This document shows, piece after piece, positions 4,776-59,402 of a DNA stretch of 64,000 nucleotides. The position numbers and the translations under genes were made by a program. Origin of the DNA: an uncultured Pseudomonadota bacterium (GTDB taxonomy: Bacteria; Vulcanimicrobiota; Vulcanimicrobiia; Eremiobacterales; Eremiobacteraceae). The stretch spans positions 1,568,001 to 1,632,000 of the forward strand of contig CAVTNB010000001.1 of the NCBI GenBank assembly GCA_963736005.1, read 5' to 3'. Below the pieces are notes generated by a model that saw nothing but the letters and a program-made list of their open reading frames with translations, did no database searches and had not been told where the DNA came from. How positions within the stretch are numbered: the first letter of the stretch is position 1; every line of letters starts with the position of its first letter.

Positions 4776-5126
4776 ATGCCAGCTGTCGCCACCCGCCAAA
4801 GGGGCGCCGAGCGCCTCTTGGATCAAATCCGCTCCACCTTCGGGCTCACCGAGAGCGAACTTGCAGACCTGCTTGGCGTTCGACGTCAATCGGTTGCTGA
4901 ATGGCGCGAGTACGGCGTGCCGGCGCAGCGCATAGCGACGCTCGAGCATATCAGCGGTTTAGCCAAGGTGTTGCGCACGGAGCTGATCCCTTCTCACATC
5001 CCGGAGATCGTGCGACGCAAGGACGCCTGGCTTGACAATAAATCAATTCTTCAAACCATTGCGCATGATGGTGTCGACCGAGTCTACGCCTATCTTCACC
5101 GGCTGTTCAGCTATCGCGGGAGTTAG
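4776..5126 (+). CDS. HTH (Xre/MbcA-like) antitoxin
   Basis: N-terminal HTH (LTESELADLLGVRRQSV); coupled to the RES gene. Confidence 0.7.
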   Translation: MPAVATRQRGAERLLDQIRSTFGLTESELADLLGVRRQSVAEWREYGVPAQRIATLEHISGLAKVLRTELIPSHIPEIVRRKDAWLDNKSILQTIAHDGVDRVYAYLHRLFSYRGS

Positions 5127-5671
5127 TGGGCCTGCGCCACACTCGCAGGCACGGTACCTATTATCGCGTGTGCAAGCCCGACTGGGCTGATTGCTCGGAC
5201 ACCTCGTATGCCAAACGTTTCGGCGGCCGCTGGACGCCGCCGGAAGAATTCGGGGCGCTCTACTTGTGCGCCACGATTGAAGTAGCGGCCGCCGTGGCGC
5301 GGACGCATCACGTCGGACGAGCAATTCCCCTCTTCTCTTTGCGGCCGGCTCTCCGACCGCAGCTTCAATCTTTCGCGGTTACCGGAGCGCAGTATGTGGA
5401 CGTCGTGACAAACGAGGGCATCGCCGCCGCAAGCCTCCCGGCGACCTATCCCGAGGGGGTGAGCCATCAGCAATGCTGGCCCGTTGCTCGTCAGGCGCAC
5501 TCCGCCCGCGAGCGGGGGATCGCATGCAGATCCGCCGCCGAGGCTGGAGCTGATTTTTGGCTGGGTGAAGAGCTGGCCATCTTCGACAACGGGCCGATGC
5601 CAAAGACGGCCGGTCGACGACGCTCCTTCTCTGAATGGTATCCTGACGTGGTGCCGCCGCTGGGCCGCTGA
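5126..5671 (+). CDS. RES-domain toxin (putative NAD+ phosphorylase)
   Basis: GGRWTP, ALYL, E and GIACRSAA motifs of the RES family. Confidence 0.8.
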   Translation: MGLRHTRRHGTYYRVCKPDWADCSDTSYAKRFGGRWTPPEEFGALYLCATIEVAAAVARTHHVGRAIPLFSLRPALRPQLQSFAVTGAQYVDVVTNEGIAAASLPATYPEGVSHQQCWPVARQAHSARERGIACRSAAEAGADFWLGEELAIFDNGPMPKTAGRRRSFSEWYPDVVPPLGR

Positions 5672-5686
5672 CCTATCGGGGATTCC

Positions 5687-6415
5687 TCACGCGCAACCGC
5701 TAGGCCGCCGCGACGCGGACGCTCTAACGGAAACCTTTTTGAGCCGAGAGGGTGCGCTATCCATATCTGCAGACACGACAACTCGGGCATCGCCGACATC
5801 GTCGAACCGTCGTTGAGCGCGTTCAGGGAAAACTTTGACGTGTATGGCCAGCAGCCCACAGTTCCCAATGATGCTCAGCCTATGGGACCCGCGCTTGTGC
5901 GCATGCATGTTTCGGGTTCTCGCGGCGATTCTCGAATGGCTACCTTGAGCCACTACGAGGGCAAGCGCGACGTTGTCGCAAGTGCTACCATGCTCCACGG
6001 TGGCGTGTCCATCGGTGTCGATGTCGCTGAGCGGAAAAGTCTTCCCGTCAACGATTTCTTCTTGCTCAGTCATTATGGGCGTGGGGGCTGGTACCGGTAG
6101 CGCCATTGGGGTGGTTGGGGACGGATTGGTCGTTGAAGTAGGTGAGGGATACAGTCCCTGGGTTGGTGCGAAAGCGGTGGTGGGGTTAGGTGTGCTGTTA
6201 AGGTCAACAGCGGTGTTCGTGTCAATGACGGTAGCAGACTCGTTGTCTGTTTGACTGCCGGCCACGATTGATCCGCCTGCAGTGTTCGCAGAACTGCTAC
6301 CTGGCAGAGGTATGATATTGCTGGCGTAACCCGAGCCACTGCCGCATCCCGCGAGCGGGACGCAGAGTAAGAAAACAAGACCAATGGCTGCAATAGTTAA
6401 TTTGTTGATGGTGAT
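5687..6415 (-). CDS. Pro/Thr-rich putative lipoprotein, probable ATC start
   Basis: ORF 5687-6265 extends in frame to an ATC at 6415 after AAGGAAG, adding the signal peptide ITINKLTIAAIGLVFLLCVPLAGC (lipobox LAGC). Confidence 0.65.
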   Translation of the reverse strand: MTINKLTIAAIGLVFLLCVPLAGCGSGSGYASNIIPLPGSSSANTAGGSIVAGSQTDNESATVIDTNTAVDLNSTPNPTTAFAPTQGLYPSPTSTTNPSPTTPMALPVPAPTPIMTEQEEIVDGKTFPLSDIDTDGHATVEHGSTCDNVALALVVAQGSHSRIAARTRNMHAHKRGSHRLSIIGNCGLLAIHVKVFPERAQRRFDDVGDARVVVSADMDSAPSRLKKVSVRASASRRPSGCA

Positions 6416-6498
6416 GGGCTTCCTTGTCCGGGCTCATCATACCATGTCGCGCTGAAAAGGGGGTTAAATTTAGGTGATCATCCATTCGTAAATCGATT

Positions 6499-8355
6499 TT
6501 GTTCCTTGCCATCGTAGTCGTTGCGCTTGAGCATCTCTCGCAGCGCGCGCTTCCCTCGTTTGCTTCATCCATTCCGCTGACCATCGTCTATCCCGGTGAA
6601 GGTGACAAGCTCCCGTACGTGAGGGAGTCGTTCATCTTCGGCTCAACGGCGCCCGGCGCCACCGTGAGTGTGAATGGTGCGTCGGCTTTGGTTGCGCCAT
6701 CCGGTGGTTGGATCGCGTACGTGCCCTTTGCGCCCGGGGATTTTCATCTGCATGTCGTGGCACGCGATGCTAGCGCAACCGCGTCGCTGGATCGAGTCGT
6801 GAACGTGTCCTCGCCACTTTCCACGCTCCCCGCATCGCCAGCCCGGGTTGATGCAGTCGTTCATCCCATACCTGACGAGAACTTGACGCTGCATCCAGGG
6901 GACACGGTGGAGCTGTTCGTTAAAGCGAGCACGGACGCGCACGTGACAGCCTCCTTCGATGGCGGGAGAACAAACGCGCCCATGGTCGAGACTCATGCGC
7001 CTAGCTTGAACCCCACAGAAAAGGAAAGAATCCTCGGCGACGCGGTCGCTAGTGGCGAACCGGTTGGGGGTCTGTACGAAGGTGAGTTTCGCGTACCGAA
7101 TGCACCCGGCACGCTGTCGGTGGACTACACGGTGACGGCACCGGACGGATCCGTGGCCAGAGCAAGTGCGAAGGGCATCATCACCGTCTCACCATTGGGT
7201 TCGTTTCGGGTTGGCCATATCGTGCTCGCTGACCGTACGAAGGACATTGACGCGCGGCCTTACGGAGTCGTCGAATCGGAACCGGATGGCGGCTGGCTCT
7301 TTTTTCCGCCAGCGCAGACGCCATTTGAAGTCACCGGCAGCGCGGGCGATTATTATCGAGTCGCGCTCGGCGCGAACCAACAAGGTTGGATTGAAAAGAA
7401 ATCAATGGCGCTCGAGACACCCGGCACGCCGCGACCGCGCGCATCGGTGCAAGGTGTTGTCGTCCAAGACGGTGCGAGAGCGGGCACCGTGATGGTACAT
7501 TTAAGTGGGCGTGTGCCGTATTGGGTGAGCGAATCCGTCGACACGCCTGGCCTGCGCATCCGACTATTTGGGGCTGCCGCGGGCGGCGATTTTGTTCGCT
7601 ATGGAGCGGACCGTGGCAACATTGCTGAGGTGCGTTGGGATCAACTTGGAGGGGAAGTCGCTACCCTCGAGATCAAACTTCGCCAGCGCACCATGTGGGG
7701 CTACCACGCGCAGTGGAACGGCAACGATCTCGAACTGGTCGTCAAGAAGTCGCCACATTTCAAACCGGCGCCCGCTTCTGCGCTCAGCGGTCTTCTTGTG
7801 GTAATCGATCCTGGACACTCACCCGATAGCGGCTCGATAGGTCCATTAGGCACGCAAGAGCGAGACGTAAATCTTGGGATCGCCAAACGGCTTGCGGTGC
7901 ACCTAGAAAAAGTCGGGGCTCGTGCGGTTCTTACGCGCACTGCGAACGTTCCCGTCGGTCTCTACGCTCGCACGGATCTTGCAGCGCGCGTAGGAGCCGA
8001 CATTCTCATCAGCATCCACAATAACGCTCTACCCGATGGAGTCGACCCTTTCACCCATCACGGCTTTTCGGTCTATTACTATCAACCACAGAGCCTCAGT
8101 CTTGCTCGCGCGATTCACGACGCGTATCGCCGCGATACGCAACTTCCAGATTACGGCCTGTTCTACGACAATCTGGCGCTCGCTCGGCCGACCGAGGAAC
8201 CGGCCGTCCTCACGGAATCGGCCTTTATCATGTGGCCGCCAGAGGAAATGGATCTCATCAACCCTACTTTCCAAGACAAGCTCGCGGCCACGATAACCGA
8301 TGGCGTGAATCGCTGGGCCAGTGCAATGCGGACGCTCGAACTCAGAGGTTATTAG
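6499..8355 (+). CDS. N-acetylmuramoyl-L-alanine amidase (Amidase_3)
   Basis: VIDPGH, ERDVNL, ISIHNNA, AVLTESAF zinc-ligand motifs at the C-terminus. Confidence 0.9.
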   Translation: MFLAIVVVALEHLSQRALPSFASSIPLTIVYPGEGDKLPYVRESFIFGSTAPGATVSVNGASALVAPSGGWIAYVPFAPGDFHLHVVARDASATASLDRVVNVSSPLSTLPASPARVDAVVHPIPDENLTLHPGDTVELFVKASTDAHVTASFDGGRTNAPMVETHAPSLNPTEKERILGDAVASGEPVGGLYEGEFRVPNAPGTLSVDYTVTAPDGSVARASAKGIITVSPLGSFRVGHIVLADRTKDIDARPYGVVESEPDGGWLFFPPAQTPFEVTGSAGDYYRVALGANQQGWIEKKSMALETPGTPRPRASVQGVVVQDGARAGTVMVHLSGRVPYWVSESVDTPGLRIRLFGAAAGGDFVRYGADRGNIAEVRWDQLGGEVATLEIKLRQRTMWGYHAQWNGNDLELVVKKSPHFKPAPASALSGLLVVIDPGHSPDSGSIGPLGTQERDVNLGIAKRLAVHLEKVGARAVLTRTANVPVGLYARTDLAARVGADILISIHNNALPDGVDPFTHHGFSVYYYQPQSLSLARAIHDAYRRDTQLPDYGLFYDNLALARPTEEPAVLTESAFIMWPPEEMDLINPTFQDKLAATITDGVNRWASAMRTLELRGY

Positions 8356-8360
8356 GTCAC

Positions 8361-9503
8361 ATGACTAGGCAAGCCATGCTCGACCTTTCGGGATTGCGGG
8401 AGCGCACGAGCCAGAAATGGAGACAATATCCCAAGGATGTCTTGCCGGTCTTTGTCGCCGAGATGGATTACGCCCTGGCACCACCGATCGCACAAGCTCT
8501 TCACGATGCGATCGATCGCTCCGATACCGGATACGCGTGGCCGCACGAGCTGCGAGAGACGTTTTCCCGTTATGCGAGAAAAAGTTTCGATTGGACGGTG
8601 TCGCCAGAGCGCGTGGTAATCGTGAATGACGTCATGGGAGGCGTGAGCGAATCGCTGCGAACGTTAACGCATGCAGATGACGGCGTGGTGATTATGCCGC
8701 CGGTCTACCCTCCATTCTTTGAAATCGTGGCGTTGGCGCAACGGCGTATTGTTGAAGTGCCCTTGCTCCACGACGATCGTTACGCGATCGACTGGAATGC
8801 ACTTGAAATGGCATTCTCGCGAGCCGTTCGCTGCTTGCTGCTCTGCCATCCGCACAATCCGGTAGGTCGTGTCTTCACGCGTACCGAGCTAGAGCGACTC
8901 GCACAGCTTGCGCAGCACTACAGCGTTCTCGTCATCTCCGATGAGATCCACGCACCGCTCGTCTATTCCGGTACAACCCATGTGCCGTTCGCCGCAGTGG
9001 CCAAGCCGCTCGGCATCGATACCGTCACGCTGATGTCAGCGTCCAAGGGTTGGAACATTGCCGGTCTCAAATGCGCGCAGATGATTGCCGGCAGCGAACG
9101 AGTGCACGCGCAATTCAAGCAGCTTCCAGCCGACGTGACCGATCGCATTGGTCATCTCGGTGTCATCGCCACCGCAGCCGCGTACGAACACGGGCAATCT
9201 TGGTTGCGCGAAACACTCACGCTGCTCGATAGAAATCGACGGTTGGTCGCGACCTTGTTGGCCAAGCATCTACCGCAAATCGGTTATCGCGAGCCCGAAG
9301 CAACCTACCTTGCGTGGCTTGATTGCCGCGCACTGCAGCTCGGAGACGATCCTGCGCAAGCGTTTATCGAACGCGCCCATGTGGCACTTTCGCACGGCTC
9401 GGAATTCGGCGAAGCTGGACGGGGGTTCGCTCGACTCAACTTCGCGACCTCAAATGAAATTTTAGCAGAGGCAATCGAACGCATGGCCCGCACAGTCGCA
9501 TAG
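8361..9503 (+). CDS. MalY/PatB family PLP-dependent cystathionine beta-lyase
   Basis: SQKW, VAEMD, CHPHNPVG, ISDEIH, SASKGWNIAGLK, EATYLAWLD. Confidence 0.92.
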   Translation: MTRQAMLDLSGLRERTSQKWRQYPKDVLPVFVAEMDYALAPPIAQALHDAIDRSDTGYAWPHELRETFSRYARKSFDWTVSPERVVIVNDVMGGVSESLRTLTHADDGVVIMPPVYPPFFEIVALAQRRIVEVPLLHDDRYAIDWNALEMAFSRAVRCLLLCHPHNPVGRVFTRTELERLAQLAQHYSVLVISDEIHAPLVYSGTTHVPFAAVAKPLGIDTVTLMSASKGWNIAGLKCAQMIAGSERVHAQFKQLPADVTDRIGHLGVIATAAAYEHGQSWLRETLTLLDRNRRLVATLLAKHLPQIGYREPEATYLAWLDCRALQLGDDPAQAFIERAHVALSHGSEFGEAGRGFARLNFATSNEILAEAIERMARTVA

Positions 9504-9514
9504 ATATAGTATCT

Positions 9515-10381
9515 TCACGAATTTGCACCAGTGTAGTTGTCCAAGACTTCGTCGGCGCTGAGCACTCGTGGATAGATTGCCACTTCACCCAAGCCCCCGC
9601 TAAGAAAACTGACTCGGTCGCGCGTGCCGAGCCGAACTGGCGCGGTGCCGTGGATCGCATGGATATCGTACGAAGCATAGCGGGCGCCGCGCGATTTTCG
9701 CGGACTCGCGCGCAGCACGCCATTCTTATATAGAGAGACGCCGGCACTTGGATCAGTCGCATCACCCGGATCGTAGCACGCAACAACGTGTATCCAGGCA
9801 CCGGGCGCTAAGTCATCTTGAAAATATGCTCCTGCTCCTTCATTAGAAGTATGGGGCTGCCCGGTTGCATTCCAGATGTACGCGGAGATGCGATTCGGCC
9901 GAGTCGGCGAGTCTTTACTATAGAAGCGGAATCCCCACTCGAAGGCGCCGGGCTCTCCTTTCCCCAGCCAATGGATGTAGTGCTCATCAGTCTGGCCTGC
10001 AAAGGTCAGCACATCAGGACGCATCCACGCCTCGACGGTCAACCCTTGGCCACTCGTCGGTTGGCTGAAAACTGCACTGTCTGGAATCTCAACAAAAGCA
10101 TCGACGCCGTTGAGGTCGATGGCCGCGTCGACCTCACTCTGTAAAGCACCGCGCTGTCCGAACGTGATACCACCCTTAAATGCTCCATCGTGGTGCCCGT
10201 TGGTCGAATCGTGCGCAACCATGCCCACTTTCTCTTCGAAACGCCAATAACCAACAGGTCCCTTGGCCAGCACGCGAGCGTGGTACGGTGTCGATGCTCC
10301 AAGAGCCGTTTTCCCAAGGAGCGAGGCAACCCCCGCGGCCCCCATCATACGTAGCAAATCCCGACGCGTCTGTAGATACAT
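9515..10381 (-). CDS. Tat-exported LamG-like jelly-roll domain protein
   Basis: TRRDLL twin-arginine signal; VGYWRFEE, TVEAW, WIHVV, EVAIYPRVLS. Confidence 0.85.
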   Translation of the reverse strand: MYLQTRRDLLRMMGAAGVASLLGKTALGASTPYHARVLAKGPVGYWRFEEKVGMVAHDSTNGHHDGAFKGGITFGQRGALQSEVDAAIDLNGVDAFVEIPDSAVFSQPTSGQGLTVEAWMRPDVLTFAGQTDEHYIHWLGKGEPGAFEWGFRFYSKDSPTRPNRISAYIWNATGQPHTSNEGAGAYFQDDLAPGAWIHVVACYDPGDATDPSAGVSLYKNGVLRASPRKSRGARYASYDIHAIHGTAPVRLGTRDRVSFLSGGLGEVAIYPRVLSADEVLDNYTGANS

Positions 10382-10385
10382 AAGA

Positions 10386-10835
10386 TTACTTGGAAAAGAC
10401 CAGCTTGAGAGTGCCGTCGGTATCCTCGCTCACCGTGAGGTGAACGAGCCCGTGATCCATGACCATCTGCGTTGTTTGCGAGTGACCACACCCGACGCCG
10501 AAAGCAGTGGGCCGAGGAGCGTCGTGATTCATGACTCGAGTATATTCGTAAATCGTCGCGGTCCCATTCACCCTTACAAAATCAATCTGGTAAGGCTGGC
10601 AGTAGGCTGCTCCTTCTGAATAAATGGAGAGCACGTCGCCGTTGGCATACTTGATGGTTGCGCACAGATCCGTGTCACCACAATGATCGAATGAAGTTGC
10701 GACCGCCCCATCACTGAAAGTCATGCTTGAGGCTGCGCTCTCGTCGGCAAGCACAGCGGACGAGCTGAAAATGAAAAGAGCCACAAGCGTGGTAAGGAAT
10801 AATCGATTCGGATTCACGTGTTGAAACCTCCTCAA
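10386..10835 (-). CDS. Hypothetical secreted protein
   Basis: Hydrophobic signal peptide; co-oriented with and 4 bp from the LamG gene. Confidence 0.65.
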   Translation of the reverse strand: MRRFQHVNPNRLFLTTLVALFIFSSSAVLADESAASSMTFSDGAVATSFDHCGDTDLCATIKYANGDVLSIYSEGAAYCQPYQIDFVRVNGTATIYEYTRVMNHDAPRPTAFGVGCGHSQTTQMVMDHGLVHLTVSEDTDGTLKLVFSK

Positions 10836-18200: not shown

Positions 18201-20975
18201 ATGTCGCCCGGAACTGGGGCCACCCCTCGAGGTGAGAGCCCCGTTACTTTGCCTTCGGGTACTATCACGTTTTTGTTCTCGGATATCGAGGGCTCGACGC
18301 AACGTTGGGAGAGTCACCCCGGGGCGATGAAGCCAGCCGTTGCGCGCCACGAGCAGCTCGTGGCGGCGGTGATGGCGCAGCACGGCGGATATATTTTCAA
18401 GACGATGGGAGATGCGCTCTGCGTCGCCTTCCCGACTGCGCCTGACGCGGTGCGAGCTTCGATTGATGCGCAGCGCGCACTCGCGAACGAAGACTTCTCC
18501 GCCGTAAGCGGCCTACGAGTGCGCATGGGGTTGCATACTGGCTACGCGGAGGAACGTAACGGCGACTATTTCGGCCCCGCGGTCAACCGAGTCGCACGTC
18601 TCATGTCCATCGGCCATGGCGGCCAAGTGTTATTGTCGGCCGTGACGAGGGCGCTCGCGCACAACGATCTACCGCAGGGCTCTTCCCTCACGGACCTCGG
18701 GTCCCAGCGGCTGCGCGATCTGACCGAACCAGAGCAGGTCTGGCAATTGACCATTACCGGACTTGCGAACGAGTTCCCACCGCTGAGATCTCTCGACACG
18801 TTGCCCAACAATTTGCCCATGCAGGTCACGAGCTTTCGTGGCCGCGATCAGGATCTCGAAGACTTGAAAAATCTGATCGGTAAGCATCCGCTCGTAACGC
18901 TGCTGGGGTCGGGAGGTGTCGGCAAGACTCGCCTCGCCCTGCAGACGGGAGCGGAGCTGCTCGACCGCTTCCCCGATGGGGTTTGGCTTGCCGATCTTGC
19001 AACCATAACGGATCCGGAACTGGTCTCGAGCGTCGTCGCCAAAGTTCTGGGGATGAGCCAGCAGGAAGGCCAGCGAGTGGATGAGTCGCTGCCTCACTGG
19101 CTGCGACGGAAGAAGCTGCTCATCATCTTGGACAACTGCGAGCACGTCGTGGAGGCTACAGCCAAGCTGGCCGAAGCGATCATCCGCTCTTGCGCGGATG
19201 TGCGACTTCTCAGTACATCCCGTCAAGCGCTGGGCATTCGCGGTGAGGAAGTCCTCAGGGTTTCTTCGCTTGATGTGCCGCATCGAGTAGCCGATTGCAC
19301 GCCGGAGACGGCGATCACATTTGGCGCCGTTGCGCTTTTCGTCGATCGGGCCCGTTCGGTAGACAAATCGTTCGAGCTGACGGACGATAACGCACCAATC
19401 GTTGCAGACATTTGCCGGCGGCTCGATGGCATACCGCTCGCCATAGAGCTTGCCGCGGCTCGGGTGAAGGTGCTTTCCATCCCCAACTTGGCACAACGGC
19501 TCAACGAGCGTTTCAAGCTTCTCACCGGTGGCAGCCGCGATGCAGTTCCTCGACAGAGGACCTTGAGCGCCCTGATCGACTGGAGCTACGATCTTCTCAG
19601 CGCGCAAGAGCAGAAGCTGTTCTTGCGTGCGGGAGTCTTCGCCGGCGGTTTCAGGCTGGACGCTGCTACGGCCGTCTGCGGCGAGGGCATGGATGAGATC
19701 GATATCTTGGATCTGCTCTCTTCGTTGAGCGACAAGTCTCTGGTCGTTGCGGACACCGGCGGCGAGCAAGAGCGATACCACCTTTTGGAATCAACGCGCG
19801 CCTACGCTTTGGAGAAGCTGACCGCGTCGGGTGAACGCGAACGCCTGAGTCGCCGCCATGCGGAGTATTTCCGCGATCAAGCCCAGGCGGCGGATGAGCG
19901 CTATGGGATAGGTTCGACCTATGTCTGGCTTGCCAACGCGGAACTCGAGCTCGACAACTATCGTGCGGCGCTCGAATGGTCCATCACAGAGAACCACGAC
20001 ATGATCGTGGGCGGCGCGATCGCGGGGGCATTGGAGCAGGTCTGGTATCGCGGTGGGCTCACCACCGAAGGCCGCTACTGGATCTCCGCAGCGCTCGAAC
20101 GGGGCAACTATGCCGGACAGCCTTTGATCGCGGCGCGCTTGTGGCGCGCTCTTGGGTTCATCCGGTCGGGCAAGCCAGCATACGAAGCGGCGGAGCGAGC
20201 ACGCGTACTCTACGAGGAAGCTGGCGATAAGTGGGGAGCCGCTCGTGCTAAGGGGGACGCGGCGTTTGCATTGAGACAGATGGGTCGGCTTGACGAAGCA
20301 GTTGAGCTCCTTACGCAAGCGATAGACACATCGCGCTCCTTGGGAGACAAATTTGGAGTTCTCATGGGCCTGAGCACGAGAGGCGGATGCGCGTACAACC
20401 TCGGTGACTTCAAGTTGGGTCGAGAATATTATTCGCAGGCCCTCGCGCTGTCCAAAGAGCTAGCGAACGACATGCAGACCTCGTTTGTCCTGTCGAACCT
20501 TGCCGAACTTGAATTTGCAGATGGCCATGCCGATGAAGCGTTGCGGTCGGCAAAAGAGCTTGCAGAACAGCGCACACGCTCGCAAAACTTGACCAACCTC
20601 GCGACCAGCAAGACCAATGTTGCTGCCTATTGTATCTGGCTTGGTCAACTCGATGAAGCTTGCCAGTCGGCCAGGGAGGCGCTTTATATCTCGCGATCGA
20701 TAACAGCGCTCTACTCCACTTCGATCGCCTGCCAGCACCTCGGGCTTATCGCCAGCCTCCGCGGCCGGCCTCAGGTGGCAGCTTCGCTTCTTGGGTTTGT
20801 CAACGAGCAGTACCGCAAAATCGAGACCGAACGCGAACCAACCGAAAAATTGTGCTACGACAAGTTCATGGCATCGCTGCGGGAACAGCTCAGTGAAACG
20901 GAGATCGAAAAGCTTCTGGCCGAGGGCGCTCGATGGACAGAGGATAAGGCGATCGAGGTTGCGCTCGAGCTCTAA
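18201..20975 (+). CDS. Class III nucleotide cyclase, NB-ARC/STAND ATPase and TPR signalling protein
   Basis: FSDIEGST, KTMGDA, DYFGPAVNRVAR; GSGGVGKTRL, LDNCEH, LDGIPLAIELAAA; C-terminal helical repeats. Confidence 0.93.
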   Translation: MSPGTGATPRGESPVTLPSGTITFLFSDIEGSTQRWESHPGAMKPAVARHEQLVAAVMAQHGGYIFKTMGDALCVAFPTAPDAVRASIDAQRALANEDFSAVSGLRVRMGLHTGYAEERNGDYFGPAVNRVARLMSIGHGGQVLLSAVTRALAHNDLPQGSSLTDLGSQRLRDLTEPEQVWQLTITGLANEFPPLRSLDTLPNNLPMQVTSFRGRDQDLEDLKNLIGKHPLVTLLGSGGVGKTRLALQTGAELLDRFPDGVWLADLATITDPELVSSVVAKVLGMSQQEGQRVDESLPHWLRRKKLLIILDNCEHVVEATAKLAEAIIRSCADVRLLSTSRQALGIRGEEVLRVSSLDVPHRVADCTPETAITFGAVALFVDRARSVDKSFELTDDNAPIVADICRRLDGIPLAIELAAARVKVLSIPNLAQRLNERFKLLTGGSRDAVPRQRTLSALIDWSYDLLSAQEQKLFLRAGVFAGGFRLDAATAVCGEGMDEIDILDLLSSLSDKSLVVADTGGEQERYHLLESTRAYALEKLTASGERERLSRRHAEYFRDQAQAADERYGIGSTYVWLANAELELDNYRAALEWSITENHDMIVGGAIAGALEQVWYRGGLTTEGRYWISAALERGNYAGQPLIAARLWRALGFIRSGKPAYEAAERARVLYEEAGDKWGAARAKGDAAFALRQMGRLDEAVELLTQAIDTSRSLGDKFGVLMGLSTRGGCAYNLGDFKLGREYYSQALALSKELANDMQTSFVLSNLAELEFADGHADEALRSAKELAEQRTRSQNLTNLATSKTNVAAYCIWLGQLDEACQSAREALYISRSITALYSTSIACQHLGLIASLRGRPQVAASLLGFVNEQYRKIETEREPTEKLCYDKFMASLREQLSETEIEKLLAEGARWTEDKAIEVALEL

Positions 20976-21796: not shown

Positions 21797-22075
21797 CTAA
21801 GAGATGGCTTTGACCTCATCCAGCTTGACACCGCGGCCAGCCCGAAGACTCTTCCGCGCCTTTTCGACACGCATCAAAAACCGTGGATCATTTTCAAGCC
21901 GGTAGTCAAACCACTCGTCATCCGATTCGAAACCGATCAAAACACCCGCAGGCCTTCCATGGCGCGTGATTACGATTTCTTCCTTTGCTGCCTCGCGAAG
22001 AAATCGTGACAAATCATCCTTCATCTCAGACAGCGGAACCTTCCTTATTCTGGTTCGGCGAATTGTGCTAGCCAT
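21797..22075 (-). CDS. Phd/YefM antitoxin
   Basis: LSEMKDDLSRFL, IVITRHGRPAGVL. Confidence 0.85.
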   Translation of the reverse strand: MASTIRRTRIRKVPLSEMKDDLSRFLREAAKEEIVITRHGRPAGVLIGFESDDEWFDYRLENDPRFLMRVEKARKSLRAGRGVKLDEVKAIS

Positions 22076-22330: not shown

Positions 22331-22395
22331 GACGGCAGGTTCCCGAACTCGGCTCCGTTCGTGCTTGAGCGCAGTCGCCAAGCGAACATTGATTT

Positions 22396-22896
22396 CTAGT
22401 ACGTTCTCCGCGTACAGGACGCACCGTGCATGCTGCAGACTTGGAGATAGAGGCGGTCGACGAGGTCCCATTCTCTTGCGACCGTTGGGGTGTGCGGCAG
22501 CGACTCGATGATCTGCAGCGTCCCGCCGATATCGCCTGCCCCTTCAGACCAGGGTAAGAATCCGTAATGCATGCCGACTGCAGTCGCGTCCGCAAAGGAC
22601 ACCGAATAGAGCAGTCGAGGCGCACTGTCATCGCACGACTTGAACTCTTGTGCACCCTCCAGCGCGTAGTGGTTTATCGTGTTCCACGAAACCTTCGCCG
22701 AGTAGTCGTTGCTCGAACCCTCGTAACTTTGGACGTCCTTCGCCTTTGCGCTGATCGCGTTGGCGTCAGCAGCCAAATTTTTGCAGCCAGCATTGGCCGG
22801 CTGAGCAAAGAGTACCGTGCCGGCACATATCAAGAGCACAATGATGAAAGTAGAGCTTTGCAGCCTCATGCTTGAATTATAGGCCCATCCAATCAC
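22396..22896 (-). CDS. Hypothetical secreted protein
   Basis: Signal peptide MRLQSSTFIIVLLICAGTVLFAQPANA (start probably 22869). Confidence 0.6.
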   Translation of the reverse strand: MIGWAYNSSMRLQSSTFIIVLLICAGTVLFAQPANAGCKNLAADANAISAKAKDVQSYEGSSNDYSAKVSWNTINHYALEGAQEFKSCDDSAPRLLYSVSFADATAVGMHYGFLPWSEGAGDIGGTLQIIESLPHTPTVAREWDLVDRLYLQVCSMHGASCTRRTY

Positions 22897-23122
22897 AACG
22901 GAGATTGACCGCAGTCACCGTTTTCGGCCATTGGGGTACGATGGCACAAAAGCCTATCGGTAGCCATCTCCTTCAGAAGACCTTGGCCCAGAAGGTCGCG
23001 CCTGCCTAAAAGGCAGGCGACGACTTAGTATCACTTTGGTAAGGCCTAGTGTGACCCGGAATGATTCCAACGGCGACCTGTCACCAATAATTCTATTGCG
23101 TCGATGCTTACCGGGCGAGCTC

Positions 23123-23152
23123 AAAAAAGAAAACCACCCGCATAACGGGTGG
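23123..23152 (-). terminator. Intrinsic terminator
   Basis: CCACCCG-TTATG-CGGGTGG followed by TTTTCTTTTTT. Confidence 0.9.
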
Positions 23153-23171
23153 GTGCTAGTAGCAGTCTCTC
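23123..23171 (-). ncRNA. Antisense small RNA (putative antitoxin) to tRNA-like RNA 1
   Basis: Starts 7 nt after TATAAT; first 17 nt GAGAGACUGCUACUAGC pair with the RNA encoded at 23294-23310; ends in a terminator. Confidence 0.8.
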
Positions 23172-23178
23172 GCGGGTC

Positions 23179-23207
23179 ATTATAGCACATACACAAGCGT
23201 CGGGCAA
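23179..23207 (-). promoter_or_regulatory. sigma70 promoter with extended -10
   Basis: TTGCCC-17 bp-(TGC)TATAAT. Confidence 0.85.
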
Positions 23208-23256
23208 GATGGATTCACGCAGTCCTCACCGTCGTGAACCCTCCGCTGCGCGGAGC

Positions 23257-23322
23257 TGGAGGCAGCGGGGATCGAACCCGCAGCAGACGGTTTGAGAGAC
23301 TACTACTAGCCAGCTTGCCCCC
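23257..23322 (-). tRNA. Non-canonical D-armless tRNA-like RNA: Ala identity (G3.U70, A73) with CUC (Glu) anticodon loop; no encoded CCA
   Basis: GGGGGCA/UGCCUCC-A acceptor; GCGGG-UUCGAUC-CCCGC T arm; CU-CUC-AA 7-nt loop; 66 nt total. Confidence 0.78.
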
Positions 23323-23398
23323 AGCACCATCCTTATCGCGCACGGTTAAGCGAACGTCAAGCCTGAAAACTAACGAGCAGCTGGGCGTCGGCGTGGGA

Positions 23399-24133
23399 CT
23401 ACCGATTGTTCATGCGGTCGAAGATCCGGCGGCGATCTTCGTACGACGCATGCATGGCTTCTTCGGAAAAACCATACGACACCTCGATGCTTCCGGCGCG
23501 GAGTTGCGTAAACGCGGCGTCCGCAAATTCGTCGAGGGGCGTGGCCCATGTGTGGAGGCCTGGACCGCCAAGATCCGTGTTGACTGCGGGCGGTGCGATC
23601 TCGATGACCTCGACGGGCGTTGCGGCGAGCTGTCGGCGCAAGGAAAGCGTAAACGAAGCGATCGCAGCCTTGGTTGCGCAGTACACCGGTGTTGCGGCGA
23701 GCGGCACATACGCAAGCCCTGACGAGATGTTGATGATCGCAGGTTCCTGTTGTTTGCGAAGGTGCGGCAGCAAGAGCATGCTTAGGTGAATTGGTGCTTC
23801 TAAGTTGATCGCGATCTCATTGTGGCATGACGACCAATCGATGTCATCATTCAATGACAGCCACTGTTGAATGCCGGCGTTATTGACGAGAATGTCGAGT
23901 TTTGGGAAGGCTTTGATCGTCCAGGCCGCGAGTTGTTTGCGCTGGTCGGGATCTGCGACATCGCACACACGGGTGTGCAGTGAAGGATGAGCCTCGTGCG
24001 CCTCACGGAGCTTATCCTCGCGCCTGCCGCAGATAATGACCTCGTTGCCTTCGGTGAGGAAACGCTTGGCAAAGGCAAAGCCAATGCCGCTCGCGCCGCC
24101 CGTCAGGAGCATGGTGTGTCCGGTCAGTTTCAT
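23399..24133 (-). CDS. SDR family oxidoreductase (DltE-like)
   Basis: TGGASGIG, LVNNAG, YCATK. Confidence 0.92.
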   Translation of the reverse strand: MKLTGHTMLLTGGASGIGFAFAKRFLTEGNEVIICGRREDKLREAHEAHPSLHTRVCDVADPDQRKQLAAWTIKAFPKLDILVNNAGIQQWLSLNDDIDWSSCHNEIAINLEAPIHLSMLLLPHLRKQQEPAIINISSGLAYVPLAATPVYCATKAAIASFTLSLRRQLAATPVEVIEIAPPAVNTDLGGPGLHTWATPLDEFADAAFTQLRAGSIEVSYGFSEEAMHASYEDRRRIFDRMNNR

Positions 24134-24288: not shown

Positions 24289-24702
24289 CTAAATAGCGAT
24301 CGACGTGTGGCGTTTTGGACGCCCACCCTTTTTCCCGTTGGCTCTGGCGGCTGCTGATTTAGCTTTGCTTCTTGTACTGCCAGCCTTGGCGTACGGATCG
24401 TCACCAGTTACTGCGCGGCGCACCAGTCCTGCAACCGATATGTTGAGATCGTGCTCGGGCAGCTCAATGGCATCGCCGACGCGCGATAGCCTCAGTTTCT
24501 TGAGATCGGGCTTTGTAACATCGGCCAAGCTAGTAATCGACCTCACGGGTATCTTTAGCTCGGTGCGATTTCGCAGCCTAAGGTAGATATGACTGCTGTT
24601 TGGAAGAAAGCTCATGATGACCGCATCATTAGCTTGATTAAGCCTCCCGCGCTCGCGAGCTTTCGCGATCCCTTTTGCATCAAAACCTTTTATTCTAACC
24701 AT
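24289..24702 (-). CDS. DUF2442-family antitoxin-like protein
   Basis: GDAIELPEHDLNISV; C-terminal KSAAARANGKKGGRP; lies downstream of the DUF4160 remnant. Confidence 0.72.
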   Translation of the reverse strand: MVRIKGFDAKGIAKARERGRLNQANDAVIMSFLPNSSHIYLRLRNRTELKIPVRSITSLADVTKPDLKKLRLSRVGDAIELPEHDLNISVAGLVRRAVTGDDPYAKAGSTRSKAKSAAARANGKKGGRPKRHTSIAI

Positions 24703-25060: not shown

Positions 25061-25471
25061 TTAGCAAACGATGCAGCGGATATATTTGGTCGCCTTCGCG
25101 TATTCGTGAATCGGACTGTCTCTGGTTAAAAGCCGCGCGCCGTACGCAGCGGCCGTGGCGATCAAAATGCAGTCCGCAGGATCACCCTGAAATTTTCCTG
25201 GTAGCTCGGTTGCTGCCAAAGCAATAGCGGGCGTCAACGTGGCAGTCAGCACGCCCGGCTGGGCAAACAGTGCGCGAATGTAATCTTGTGCAGGGGTCGC
25301 GAGAATGAGCCGCCCCTTGCGCACGAGCATGCCTATTTCCCACGCGCTAATTGGCGAAAGCAGAAGCTCACCGCGCTTGGCGGCATCATCCACAGCTCCG
25401 GCGATAGCTGGTGCTATTTTACCCTCGACCGCCCAAACTGCAGCATGCGTGTCAAGCAAAATTGGGTTCAT
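25061..25471 (-). CDS. vapC: VapC-like PIN toxin
   Basis: LLDTHA, SPISAWEI, DPADCILIATA, LLTRD. Confidence 0.92.
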   Translation of the reverse strand: MNPILLDTHAAVWAVEGKIAPAIAGAVDDAAKRGELLLSPISAWEIGMLVRKGRLILATPAQDYIRALFAQPGVLTATLTPAIALAATELPGKFQGDPADCILIATAAAYGARLLTRDSPIHEYAKATKYIRCIVC

Positions 25472-59132: not shown

Positions 59133-59179
59133 AAAAAAGAAAACCACCCGCAACTGGGTGGTATCCGTATTGGCCTGTC
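59133..59179 (-). ncRNA. Antisense small RNA (putative antitoxin) to tRNA-like RNA 2
   Basis: Starts 7 nt after TACCAT; GACAGGCCAAUACGG pairs with the RNA encoded at 59307-59320; terminator CCACCC-AGTTGC-GGGTGG-TTTTCTTTTTT. Confidence 0.75.
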
Positions 59180-59186
59180 GTTGGCG

Positions 59187-59215
59187 ATGGTAGCATATTT
59201 AGGACCTTGATGCAA
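59187..59215 (-). promoter_or_regulatory. sigma70 promoter with extended -10
   Basis: TTGCAT-17 bp-(TGC)TACCAT; same geometry as 23179-23207. Confidence 0.8.
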
Positions 59216-59269
59216 GTTAGAGAGGATCACGAGGCCTGACGCCGTGATCCCCTCCGAGCGAGCTCGGGC

Positions 59270-59335
59270 TAGAGGCGGCGGGAATCGAACCCGCCGTACG
59301 CGGTTTGACAGACCAATCGGTTTCATTTTGCCAGG
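59270..59335 (-). tRNA. Second D-armless tRNA-like RNA, GUC (Asp) anticodon loop, 5' acceptor strand degenerate
   Basis: GCGGG-UUCGAUU-CCCGC T arm; 3' strand CGCCUCU-A keeps U70 and A73; UGGU-CUGUCAA-ACCG arm; 5' CCUGGCA pairs only at positions 4-6. Confidence 0.65.
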
Positions 59336-59402
59336 GCGCTTTGCGCTGTGTGGTCGAAACTATGCGCCCGCCACTTCCGACGCGTGCTGGAGGATGCTGG
59401 TA

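Follow-up and report, generated by a model that had tools for sequence, protein, structure and literature searches.

The question raised by a 64,000-nt window of DNA from an uncultured member of the Eremiobacteraceae (contig CAVTNB010000001.1, positions 1,568,001 to 1,632,000; this whole stretch is called the window here) is what a 66-nt tRNA-like RNA, encoded on the minus strand from 23322 to 23257, is and what it might be for. A first-pass annotation had described this element as a D-armless tRNA mimic with an alanine acceptor stem and a glutamate anticodon, and had likened it to the tRNA-like domain of transfer-messenger RNA (tmRNA). The letters behind that description are all present on the minus strand. 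The acceptor stem is GGGGGCA/UGCCUCC (23322-23316 and 23264-23258), with G3.U70 as its third pair and a discriminator A at 23257, and the T arm, GCGGG-UUCGAUC-CCCGC (23281-23265), is canonical. The 34 nt that separate the acceptor 5' strand from the T arm hold a GG-containing stretch, a mini D arm remnant (23315-23308) and an anticodon-like arm (23306-23282) with the stem AGUAG/CUGCU and the 7-nt loop CUCUCAA. A73 is followed by GCU, and CCA is not encoded. The Rfam tRNA model RF00005 matches exactly 23257-23322 with 30.2 bits, against a gathering score of 29; this is the lowest of 46 RF00005 matches in the host genome, the other 45 being real tRNAs that score 52.6-75.8 bits. ARAGORN, run over the whole window, returned 0 genes and so did not call the element. 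When only the 66-mer is folded, its stability does not exceed that of shuffled sequence (z -1.5), and the case for the element therefore rests on comparison with its relatives. On that comparative evidence the tRNA-like element at 23257-23322 is confirmed as real and as more than a chance likeness, and the real finding is larger than the 66 nt that were flagged.

The element makes up the 5' part of a module about 200 nt long, which runs on the minus strand from 23360 to 23123 in the order P1, tRNA-like RNA, H1, H2, P2, b', terminator. P1 (23332-23360) is an upstream promoter-like site made up of TTGACG (23360-23355), a 17-nt spacer and GATAAG (23337-23332), and the tRNA-like RNA begins 9 nt past the P1 -10. 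The consensus promoter scan of the window did not list P1, because its -10 is weak; the P1 layout (TTGaCg ... GTGATAa, about 8-10 nt ahead of GGUUGGGGG) recurs upstream of most of 33 homologues. Directly past the discriminator stands hairpin H1 (CUCCGC-GCA-GCGGAG, 23241-23255), and a hairpin is found at this place in every member compared. Hairpin H2 (23211-23240) follows, with a short anti-loop copy in its loop (23232-23220). The internal sigma70-type promoter P2 (23179-23207) reads TTGCCC, 17 nt, TG-n-TATAAT, which the consensus promoter scan credits with 10 of 12 hexamer matches plus the TG. Segment b' (GAGAGACUGCUACUAGC, 23155-23171) starts about 7 nt past the P2 -10, and the module closes with a strong intrinsic terminator (23123-23152), an 8-bp stem with 6 G-C pairs followed by UUUUCUUUUUU. 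Segment b' is complementary to segment b (23294-23310), which spans the 5' strand of the anticodon-like arm and the first half of its loop. The two form the inverted repeat I1: the 17 nt of b are 94% complementary to 23155-23171, and b is the predicted target of both b' and the H2 loop. Given this arrangement, a short RNA of some 50 nt would begin with b'. The whole unit folds well below its shuffles (-92 kcal/mol, z -3.9), with b paired to b' in the predicted structure.

When the unit was compared by BLAST with 61 related genomes, partial matches came up in 12, and the flanks of all of these have the same order of parts. One alignment of 14 full modules (A1) and one of 15 5' domains (A2) were prepared, and a covariance model, R1, was built. 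In the host genome, which is 84% complete, R1 gives 91.4 bits for the module described above and 67.5 bits for a second copy, and the next match is a tRNA-Phe at 38.7 bits. Members score about 49-131 bits, and clear tRNA false positives in the host's GTDB family (f1) reach at most 40. At 48.8 bits or more, R1 detects the module in 14 of 32 f1 genomes, with 1-5 copies each; this count includes the unpublished genome G008, and with both unpublished genomes (G008 and G011) set aside it is 13 of 30. In an even sample of the phylum (151 genomes, matches at E <=1e-5, host genome not counted), R1 matched 4 of 9 f1 genomes, 20 of 71 genomes of a sister family (f2), and 0 of 70 genomes from 19 other families of the phylum. 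The f2 elements form a diverged subfamily, scoring 42-54 bits with R1. A pattern scan of public genomes returned at least 120 stretches; among the matches listed only four pass the b/b' test, and those four records are metagenome-assembled genomes labelled Vulcanimicrobiota or Candidatus Eremiobacteraeota. The other stretches of that scan proved to be ordinary tRNA or tmRNA ends followed by promoters. Among the genomes searched, the family was found only in Vulcanimicrobiota/Eremiobacterota. It is patchy even within the host's genus: the host genome (G000) has one intact copy, G002 has remnants only, and G001 and G003 have none. G002 keeps P2, b' and the terminator alone, at 89% identity, and decayed copies retain these same parts. 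The genes next to the modules differ from locus to locus and are often convergent with them; by this context the module is a free-standing unit.

In the 14 modules of A1, RNAduplex energies averaged -42.3 kcal/mol for cognate b/b' pairs as against -22.9 (sd 6.1, 182 pairs) for non-cognate pairs, and the cognate b' was the best partner in 13 of the 14 rows. Over 30 R1 matches from f1 and f2, drawn from a set of 33 by leaving out three with variant T loops, the means were -47.4 kcal/mol for cognate and -28.6 (sd 7.7) for non-cognate pairs, with the cognate b' ranked first in 22. One of the 30, L239, has a poor duplex (-17.7 kcal/mol); its anticodon-like loop and mini D arm look like those of the family, and its P2 is doubtful. 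In f1 the H2 loop is a 7-10-nt copy of the 5' part of b', and its predicted duplex with the anticodon-like loop averages -15.7 kcal/mol for cognate, -10.3 (sd 3.6) for non-cognate and -7.7 (sd 2.9) for shuffled sequences; here the cognate ranks first in 7 of 15, these being the members with diverged loops. No other site with two or fewer mismatches to b or b' was found in the host genome, and sites with 3-4 mismatches occur in about the number that we estimate for chance. In a close variant of the window module, from DNA run X1 (an aquatic metagenome), the U of the sole G.U in the b/b' duplex of the window's first copy is replaced by C, giving G-C. The remaining changes in the X1 variant, apart from one in the D arm taken up below, are in the two promoter spacers and an SDR gene. 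As judged from these duplex predictions, each module pairs b with b' in a specificity of its own. The 5' strand of the anticodon-like arm can enter either the local stem or the b/b' helix but not both at once, and both structures are under selection.

The tRNA-like fold is supported by covariation. In A2, 96.7% of 338 cells are standard pairs when the T stem, the anticodon-like arm (5+3 bp) and the acceptor, lengthened by 3 bp of leader-trailer pairing, are taken together; with the partners slid by 1-3 columns the share is 39-54%. Both sides change in 12 of the 23 pairs, 7 of the 8 pairs of the anticodon-like arm covary, and 0 of 500 shuffles reach the observed covariation score. The family also has a 3-bp mini D stem with a 4-nt loop (GGC-UGGU-GCC type), which is 93.2% paired and in which 3 of 3 pairs covary, so that "D-armless" describes the window copy only, which is without two bases of the mini D arm kept by its relatives. 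The X1 variant has this arm intact (AGC-UGGU-GCU, window 23302-23309). The minimum-energy fold of a consensus-type copy, G026a, is a four-arm cloverleaf. The anticodon-like arm and the T stem are separated by 0 nt, leaving no variable loop.

Alanine identity is fixed in the tRNA-like domain. Every one of the 14 rows with letters has G.U at acceptor position 3, in contrast to the covarying positions 4, 6 and 7, and the discriminator is A in 14 of 14 rows and in all 33 aligned R1 matches; the family thus carries G3.U70 and A73, the identity set of tRNA(Ala). The first five acceptor pairs are those of each lineage's own tmRNA, GGGGG/CCUCC in f1 and GGGGC/GCUCC in f2, and in the host they are also those of tRNA-Ala(UGC/GGC). 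The glutamate anticodon of the earlier description fared less well. A 7-nt loop occurs in 31 of 33 aligned members, and CUC is its middle triplet in the window copy alone. The most frequent triplets are GUC (11), GAU (11) and GAC (5), and GUA, GCG and UUC, like CUC, occur once each. Of the 31 loops, 24 have U33, 29 have G34 and 29 have A37.

Like tRNA(Ala), the family has G3.U70, A73, the T loop UUCGAUY and, in most members, a 7-nt loop with U33 and A37, and like most tRNA genes of the host it has no encoded CCA (by a loose test, about 30 of the 46 real host tRNA genes have none). Unlike tRNA(Ala), it has a mini D arm, no variable loop and a 5+3-bp anticodon-like arm, and pairing between leader and trailer extends its acceptor helix. 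Taking as canonical a 3-4-bp D stem with an 8-11-nt loop, a 5-bp anticodon stem and a 4-5-nt variable region, the element departs from the full cloverleaf geometry, and it falls short of a tRNA in score and in detection by the tRNA finder. ARAGORN called no f1 module at 16 loci, and it called three f2-type elements tRNA-Ile(GAU) or tRNA-Val(GAC).

The likeness to the tRNA-like domain of tmRNA, the nearest known counterpart in structure, is real, and the first-pass interpretation is supported in part. The host has a tmRNA of its own (G000:C3:145744-146094, 166.7 bits, tag ANSEYALAA), whose acceptor, GGGGGCG/CGCCUCC, nearly equals that of the element. In common with the tRNA-like domain of tmRNA, the element has a G.U third pair, an A as discriminator and a T arm of canonical form; in both, the D region is cut down to a mini stem or a loop with GG, and a helix abuts the T arm without a variable loop. 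For three consensus-type copies in genome G026, the tmRNA model RF00023 is the best Rfam match, at 28.2-38.5 bits, under the gathering score of 47, and the match covers the two ends only. The element nevertheless has only the tRNA-like domain of a tmRNA. It is without the tag reading frame and pseudoknots, for which a 66-nt RNA has no room, without an encoded CCA, and without the GGUUUCGAC stretch that comes after the acceptor strand of the host's tmRNA; further, its family is multi-copy and patchy, with a dedicated antisense partner, in a host that has a full tmRNA. What the comparison with tmRNA misses is that the element is only half of a larger module with two promoters. For lack of a tag frame and pseudoknots, with sub-threshold Rfam scores and a full tmRNA elsewhere in the genome, the element was rejected as a tmRNA. 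The closest precedent for a version without the coding part is the tmRNA of jakobid mitochondria, which, according to PMC3590771, has no mRNA-like domain, keeps the G.U and the A, and receives its CCA after transcription.

The TTG of the P2 -35 and the TA...T of its -10 are invariant in the 14 modules of A1, the spacer sequence is free, and the spacer is 17 nt long in all confirmed modules but one. The motif was found in 29 of the 30 R1 matches analysed, with one of the 29 doubtful (L239) and one match lacking it (L228:5011). Across modules b' begins 6-8 nt past the P2 -10. An ATG that overlaps the P2 -10 opens a short open reading frame (ORF), the frame of which, by eye, is not conserved in the G026 copies.

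Taken together, these features suggest an RNA/anti-RNA pair, in which a small RNA that mimics tRNA or tmRNA is held in check by its own antisense RNA; in our estimate this scheme has an even chance of being right. P1 would make a compact tRNA-like RNA with G3.U70, A73, a T arm, a mini D arm and a long anticodon-like arm. This RNA would probably be trimmed by tRNA-processing enzymes and given CCA, since most real tRNA genes here also lack an encoded CCA, and it would probably be recognised by alanyl-tRNA synthetase (AlaRS). From P2 would come a short RNA that begins with b' (17-24 nt), the complement of the anticodon-like 5' strand and loop of its own module, and transcripts that read through from P1 would carry the same b', with the shorter copy in the H2 loop of f1 members. 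The two RNAs would first meet at the loop, and the anticodon-like arm would then be opened into a long duplex (17-24 bp), which would mask or destroy the tRNA-like RNA, with a specificity private to each module.

Several observations weigh against this scheme. The cognate b' is not top-ranked in 8 of 30 matches, because many loops are shared, and f2 elements are without H2. In 14 of 15 members a leader GUU pairs with A73-G-C and adds 3 bp to the acceptor helix, an extension that could hinder RNase P and 3' processing, and hence charging. For the full-length transcript the lowest-energy fold, the -92 kcal/mol structure noted above, is one long-range b/b' helix, and it fits a single-RNA model equally well. 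Only one RNA run, X9 (contigs of a soil metatranscriptome), contained the element, as two read-length family contigs of depth about 2 with the flanks uncovered. One is a 151-nt contig, corresponding to 23131-23281, that bridges P2 and ends, at 23131, in the terminator. The second contig belongs to a G022-type module; on the upstream side it extends about 34 nt past the start predicted for P1, and it may represent library DNA or a longer transcript. As a sign of transcription the X9 contigs are a weak hint.

The strongest rival to the RNA/anti-RNA pair holds that there is one structured RNA, a P1 transcript reaching to the terminator that toggles between the tRNA-like fold and the long b/b' helix as a switch or a processing signal, with the P2-like hexamers conserved for some other reason. 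The full-length minimum-energy fold is built on b/b', the stretch from the tRNA-like part to b' has no terminator, one contig of the RNA library bridges P2, and the local stem and the b/b' helix both covary. We consider it unlikely all the same, since the TTGnnn-N17-TAnnnT pattern, with a spacer of constant length and free sequence, is kept in 14 of 14 aligned modules and in both families, which is the signature of a promoter, not of an RNA motif. That b' starts at the expected transcription start, and that G002 retains P2, b' and the terminator alone, also speak for a separate transcript. If the element were instead a working translation factor, either a reduced tmRNA or a special alanine tRNA (for example, an Ala donor outside the ribosome), its invariant G3.U70 and A73, its acceptor stem matching the lineage's tmRNA, and the RF00023 matches of the G026 copies would be accounted for, and the jakobid tmRNAs (PMC3590771) would be a precedent. 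The host, however, already has a complete tmRNA and 46 ordinary tRNAs, among them three tRNA-Ala and a tRNA-Glu(CUC), as called by ARAGORN over the genome; presence of the module is patchy and copies decay; the element lacks the GGUUUCGAC stretch; and the dedicated antisense RNA would be left without explanation. We hold this reading to be very improbable. A relic, that is a tRNA or tmRNA fragment left as the attachment-site duplicate of an integrative element or a decaying tRNA pseudogene, could explain why two direct modules flank an integrase and Xre/RES island in G026, why the locus is rearranged between G000 and G002, and why the second window copy is truncated. Against a relic stand complete covarying helices, promoters and a terminator of the module's own, a co-evolving complementary segment, and conservation across two GTDB families. 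In addition, the element is identical neither to the 3' end of the host ssrA nor to those of its tRNA-Ala genes. The T arms of the element (GCGGGUUCGAUCCCCGC) and of ssrA (ACCGGUUCAACUCCGGU) differ, those of the three tRNA-Ala differ from it too, and ssrA encodes its CCA, so that the outcome which the first-pass annotation had named as fatal to its own proposal, an exact duplicate of the ssrA 3' end, was looked for and did not occur. The relic reading is largely refuted, and we give it hardly any probability.

A special case of the RNA/anti-RNA pair is that of an RNA-RNA toxin-antitoxin or abortive-infection-like module, in which the free mimic would be harmful, for example because it delivers alanine at GAC, AUC, GUC or GAG codons, or because AlaRS, EF-Tu or the ribosome is jammed by it, and a short, strongly expressed b' RNA would neutralise it. 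The b/b' specificity private to each module fits this case, as do a P2 that by sequence is strong beside a weak P1, the 1-5 copies per genome with patchy presence even within a genus, the retention of P2, b' and terminator by decayed copies, the position of modules beside toxin-antitoxin genes and at the flanks of an integrase island, and the kept U33, G34 and A37 of the anticodon-like loop. tRNAs with AlaRS identity and non-alanine anticodons are reported to mistranslate (PMC12084884, 10.1101/2022.11.23.517754 and PMC5389508). The geometry, though, is not canonical, given the missing variable loop and the long anticodon-like arm, and the f2 array sits at one conserved locus in four genomes, which is more like a housekeeping gene than a selfish one. 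This special case too seems to us unlikely. Its most definite form, an RNA-only addiction or defence module in which a stable, AlaRS-chargeable mimic with an Asp-, Ile-, Val- or Glu-type anticodon loop mistranslates or jams when free, and is silenced by a labile, strongly transcribed antisense RNA that opens up its anticodon arm through a private b/b' "address" for each paralogue, is taken as a whole a slim prospect. In this form the mimic may derive from the tRNA-like domain of tmRNA or from tRNA(Ala).

Among known systems, the closest in architecture are the C4 RNA of phages P1 and P7 and the CI RNA of satellite phage P4. These are small processed RNAs, the loops of which pair with complementary sites on the same strand and in the same transcription unit. 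According to PMC5499578, C4 and CI serve as RNase P substrates; they have an acceptor-like stem and no equivalent of the T loop, whereas the element family has a canonical T loop. At 22700-23800, Rfam searches at E <=10 matched no family but tRNA to the element, and C4/CI were not matched; at E <=0.1 there was no C4/CI match at the loci L220 and L236. Nor does the module share the phage context or the regulated downstream genes of C4 and CI: a pattern scan of viral contigs returned 30 stretches, of which 0 pass the b/b' test, and as far as that scan shows the element is not phage-borne. A second likeness is to pairs of a small RNA with an anti-small RNA (sponge) and to RNA-RNA toxin-antitoxin systems, in which a structured RNA is matched by a short RNA that has a single-stranded seed at its 5' end and finishes in a terminator hairpin with a U tail. 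In those systems the two RNAs are encoded together and have extended complementarity specific to the pair. The module differs in that the partner is a separate complementary segment on the same strand and not a true cis-antisense transcript, in that the target is a tRNA mimic, and in that it has no protein or peptide gene.

Other identities were tried and rejected. A bacterial Y RNA (YrlA-like, partner of Rsr/Ro) has a different architecture, and no TROVE match was found in the host genome at 84% completeness by a search whose positive control, Deinococcus, was detected. A leader or attenuator for a downstream gene is contradicted by the unrelated ORFs downstream of the two window copies and by the often convergent downstream gene of the relatives. 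An antiterminator, with b/b' extending into the 5' strand of the terminator, is plausible by eye in the G026 copies and not in the window copy. A miniature inverted-repeat transposable element (MITE) with terminal inverted repeats is contradicted by the variation of the repeats b and b' around a conserved interior. At 20 loci 154 flanking ORFs were called, and the 98 of them that were scanned include no conserved protein partner.

Among the genomes searched, the module family is restricted to one lineage, and it would combine known kinds of RNA, a tRNA/tmRNA mimic and antisense control. No description of the element, or of a tRNA mimic with a same-strand, separately promoted antisense partner, was found in a literature search by titles and abstract openings, and we know of no described system with such a pair. 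If the RNA/anti-RNA pair is correct, a mostly uncultured soil phylum carries small RNAs with the alanine identity of tRNA and tmRNA outside its normal tRNA set, and each such RNA has a dedicated RNA aimed at its own anticodon arm. The family would offer a natural case for asking what the tRNA shape can do outside decoding, how RNA-RNA pairs stay orthogonal among paralogues, and whether tmRNA-like domains can evolve into regulators or toxins. For annotation it matters that tRNA finders sometimes label these elements tRNA-Ile or tRNA-Val.

In f2 the module takes a somewhat different form. The D stem has 4 bp (UCGA-UGGUG-UCGA), the acceptor is GGGGCGC/GCGCUCC, and the promoter, TTGCGA-N17-TAGGCT, is followed by b', a conserved ACACAUCGAAACGCGCG stretch and the terminator, with H2 missing. 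These units often stand in tandem arrays, and in G051 five R1 matches lie within about 1.5 kb. In four genomes (L231, L233, L236 and L238) the arrays adjoin the same pair of genes, one for a radical-SAM protein and one for a member of the uracil-DNA glycosylase superfamily, and the array locus looks vertically inherited. A third variant, in L237 (G141) and L239 (G158), has the acceptors GGGGAGU/ACUCUCC and GGGGAUG/CAUCUCC; A-CC comes next, which may be an encoded CCA. L237 has both P2 and a b' that matches, and in L239 no b' was found.

Arrangements of several modules were also seen at other loci. At L220 (G026:C1:320500-336500) two modules in direct orientation, at 6106-10833, flank about 4.5 kb that contain a tyrosine integrase (6323-7300), an Xre/RES toxin-antitoxin pair (8206-9086) and ORFs of unknown kind, and this stretch resembles an island inserted at a tRNA gene. 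A third G026 module is convergent and lies 1 kb off, beyond a 235-aa ORF without a Pfam match. At L230 (G009:C15) two modules stand in tandem at 4980-5295; the second (48.8 bits) begins within its neighbour's terminator and lacks both P1 and an acceptor 5' strand.

The second copy in the window (59133-59336, minus strand) is truncated at its 5' end. What is left comprises part of b, the loop, the T arm, H1, H2, P2 (TTGCAT-N17-TACCAT), b' and the terminator; where the acceptor 5' strand and P1 would stand, the divergent promoter region of an aldehyde dehydrogenase gene is found instead. Its own b (AUUGGUCUGUC) still pairs with its own b' (GACAGGCCAAU), and both sequences differ from those of the first copy.

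Around the first copy, genes of toxin-antitoxin type lie on the minus strand at 21797-22075, 24289-24702 and 25061-25471, and encode a Phd/YefM antitoxin, a DUF2442 protein and a PIN-domain (VapC-like) protein. Large proteins of the adenylate/guanylate-cyclase type are encoded within a few kb of modules at four f1 loci (window 18201-20975, plus strand; L224:5444-7456; L227:6750-9929; L221:3484-4830). Three of the four also have NB-ARC and/or TPR (STAND-type) domains, and one has a response-regulator receiver domain; this proximity may merely reflect the many paralogues in these genomes. Finally, G000 and G002, two species of one genus, differ by a local rearrangement between window 22373-23361 and L009 (G002:C5). 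The order in G000 is B (22373-23019, a 166-aa ORF without a Pfam match), A (23064-23225, the 3' part of the module), the tRNA-like domain and C (the SDR gene), and the order in G002 is A, B, C. The G002 locus is without the tRNA-like domain, H1 and half of H2, and the break falls inside the H2 loop.

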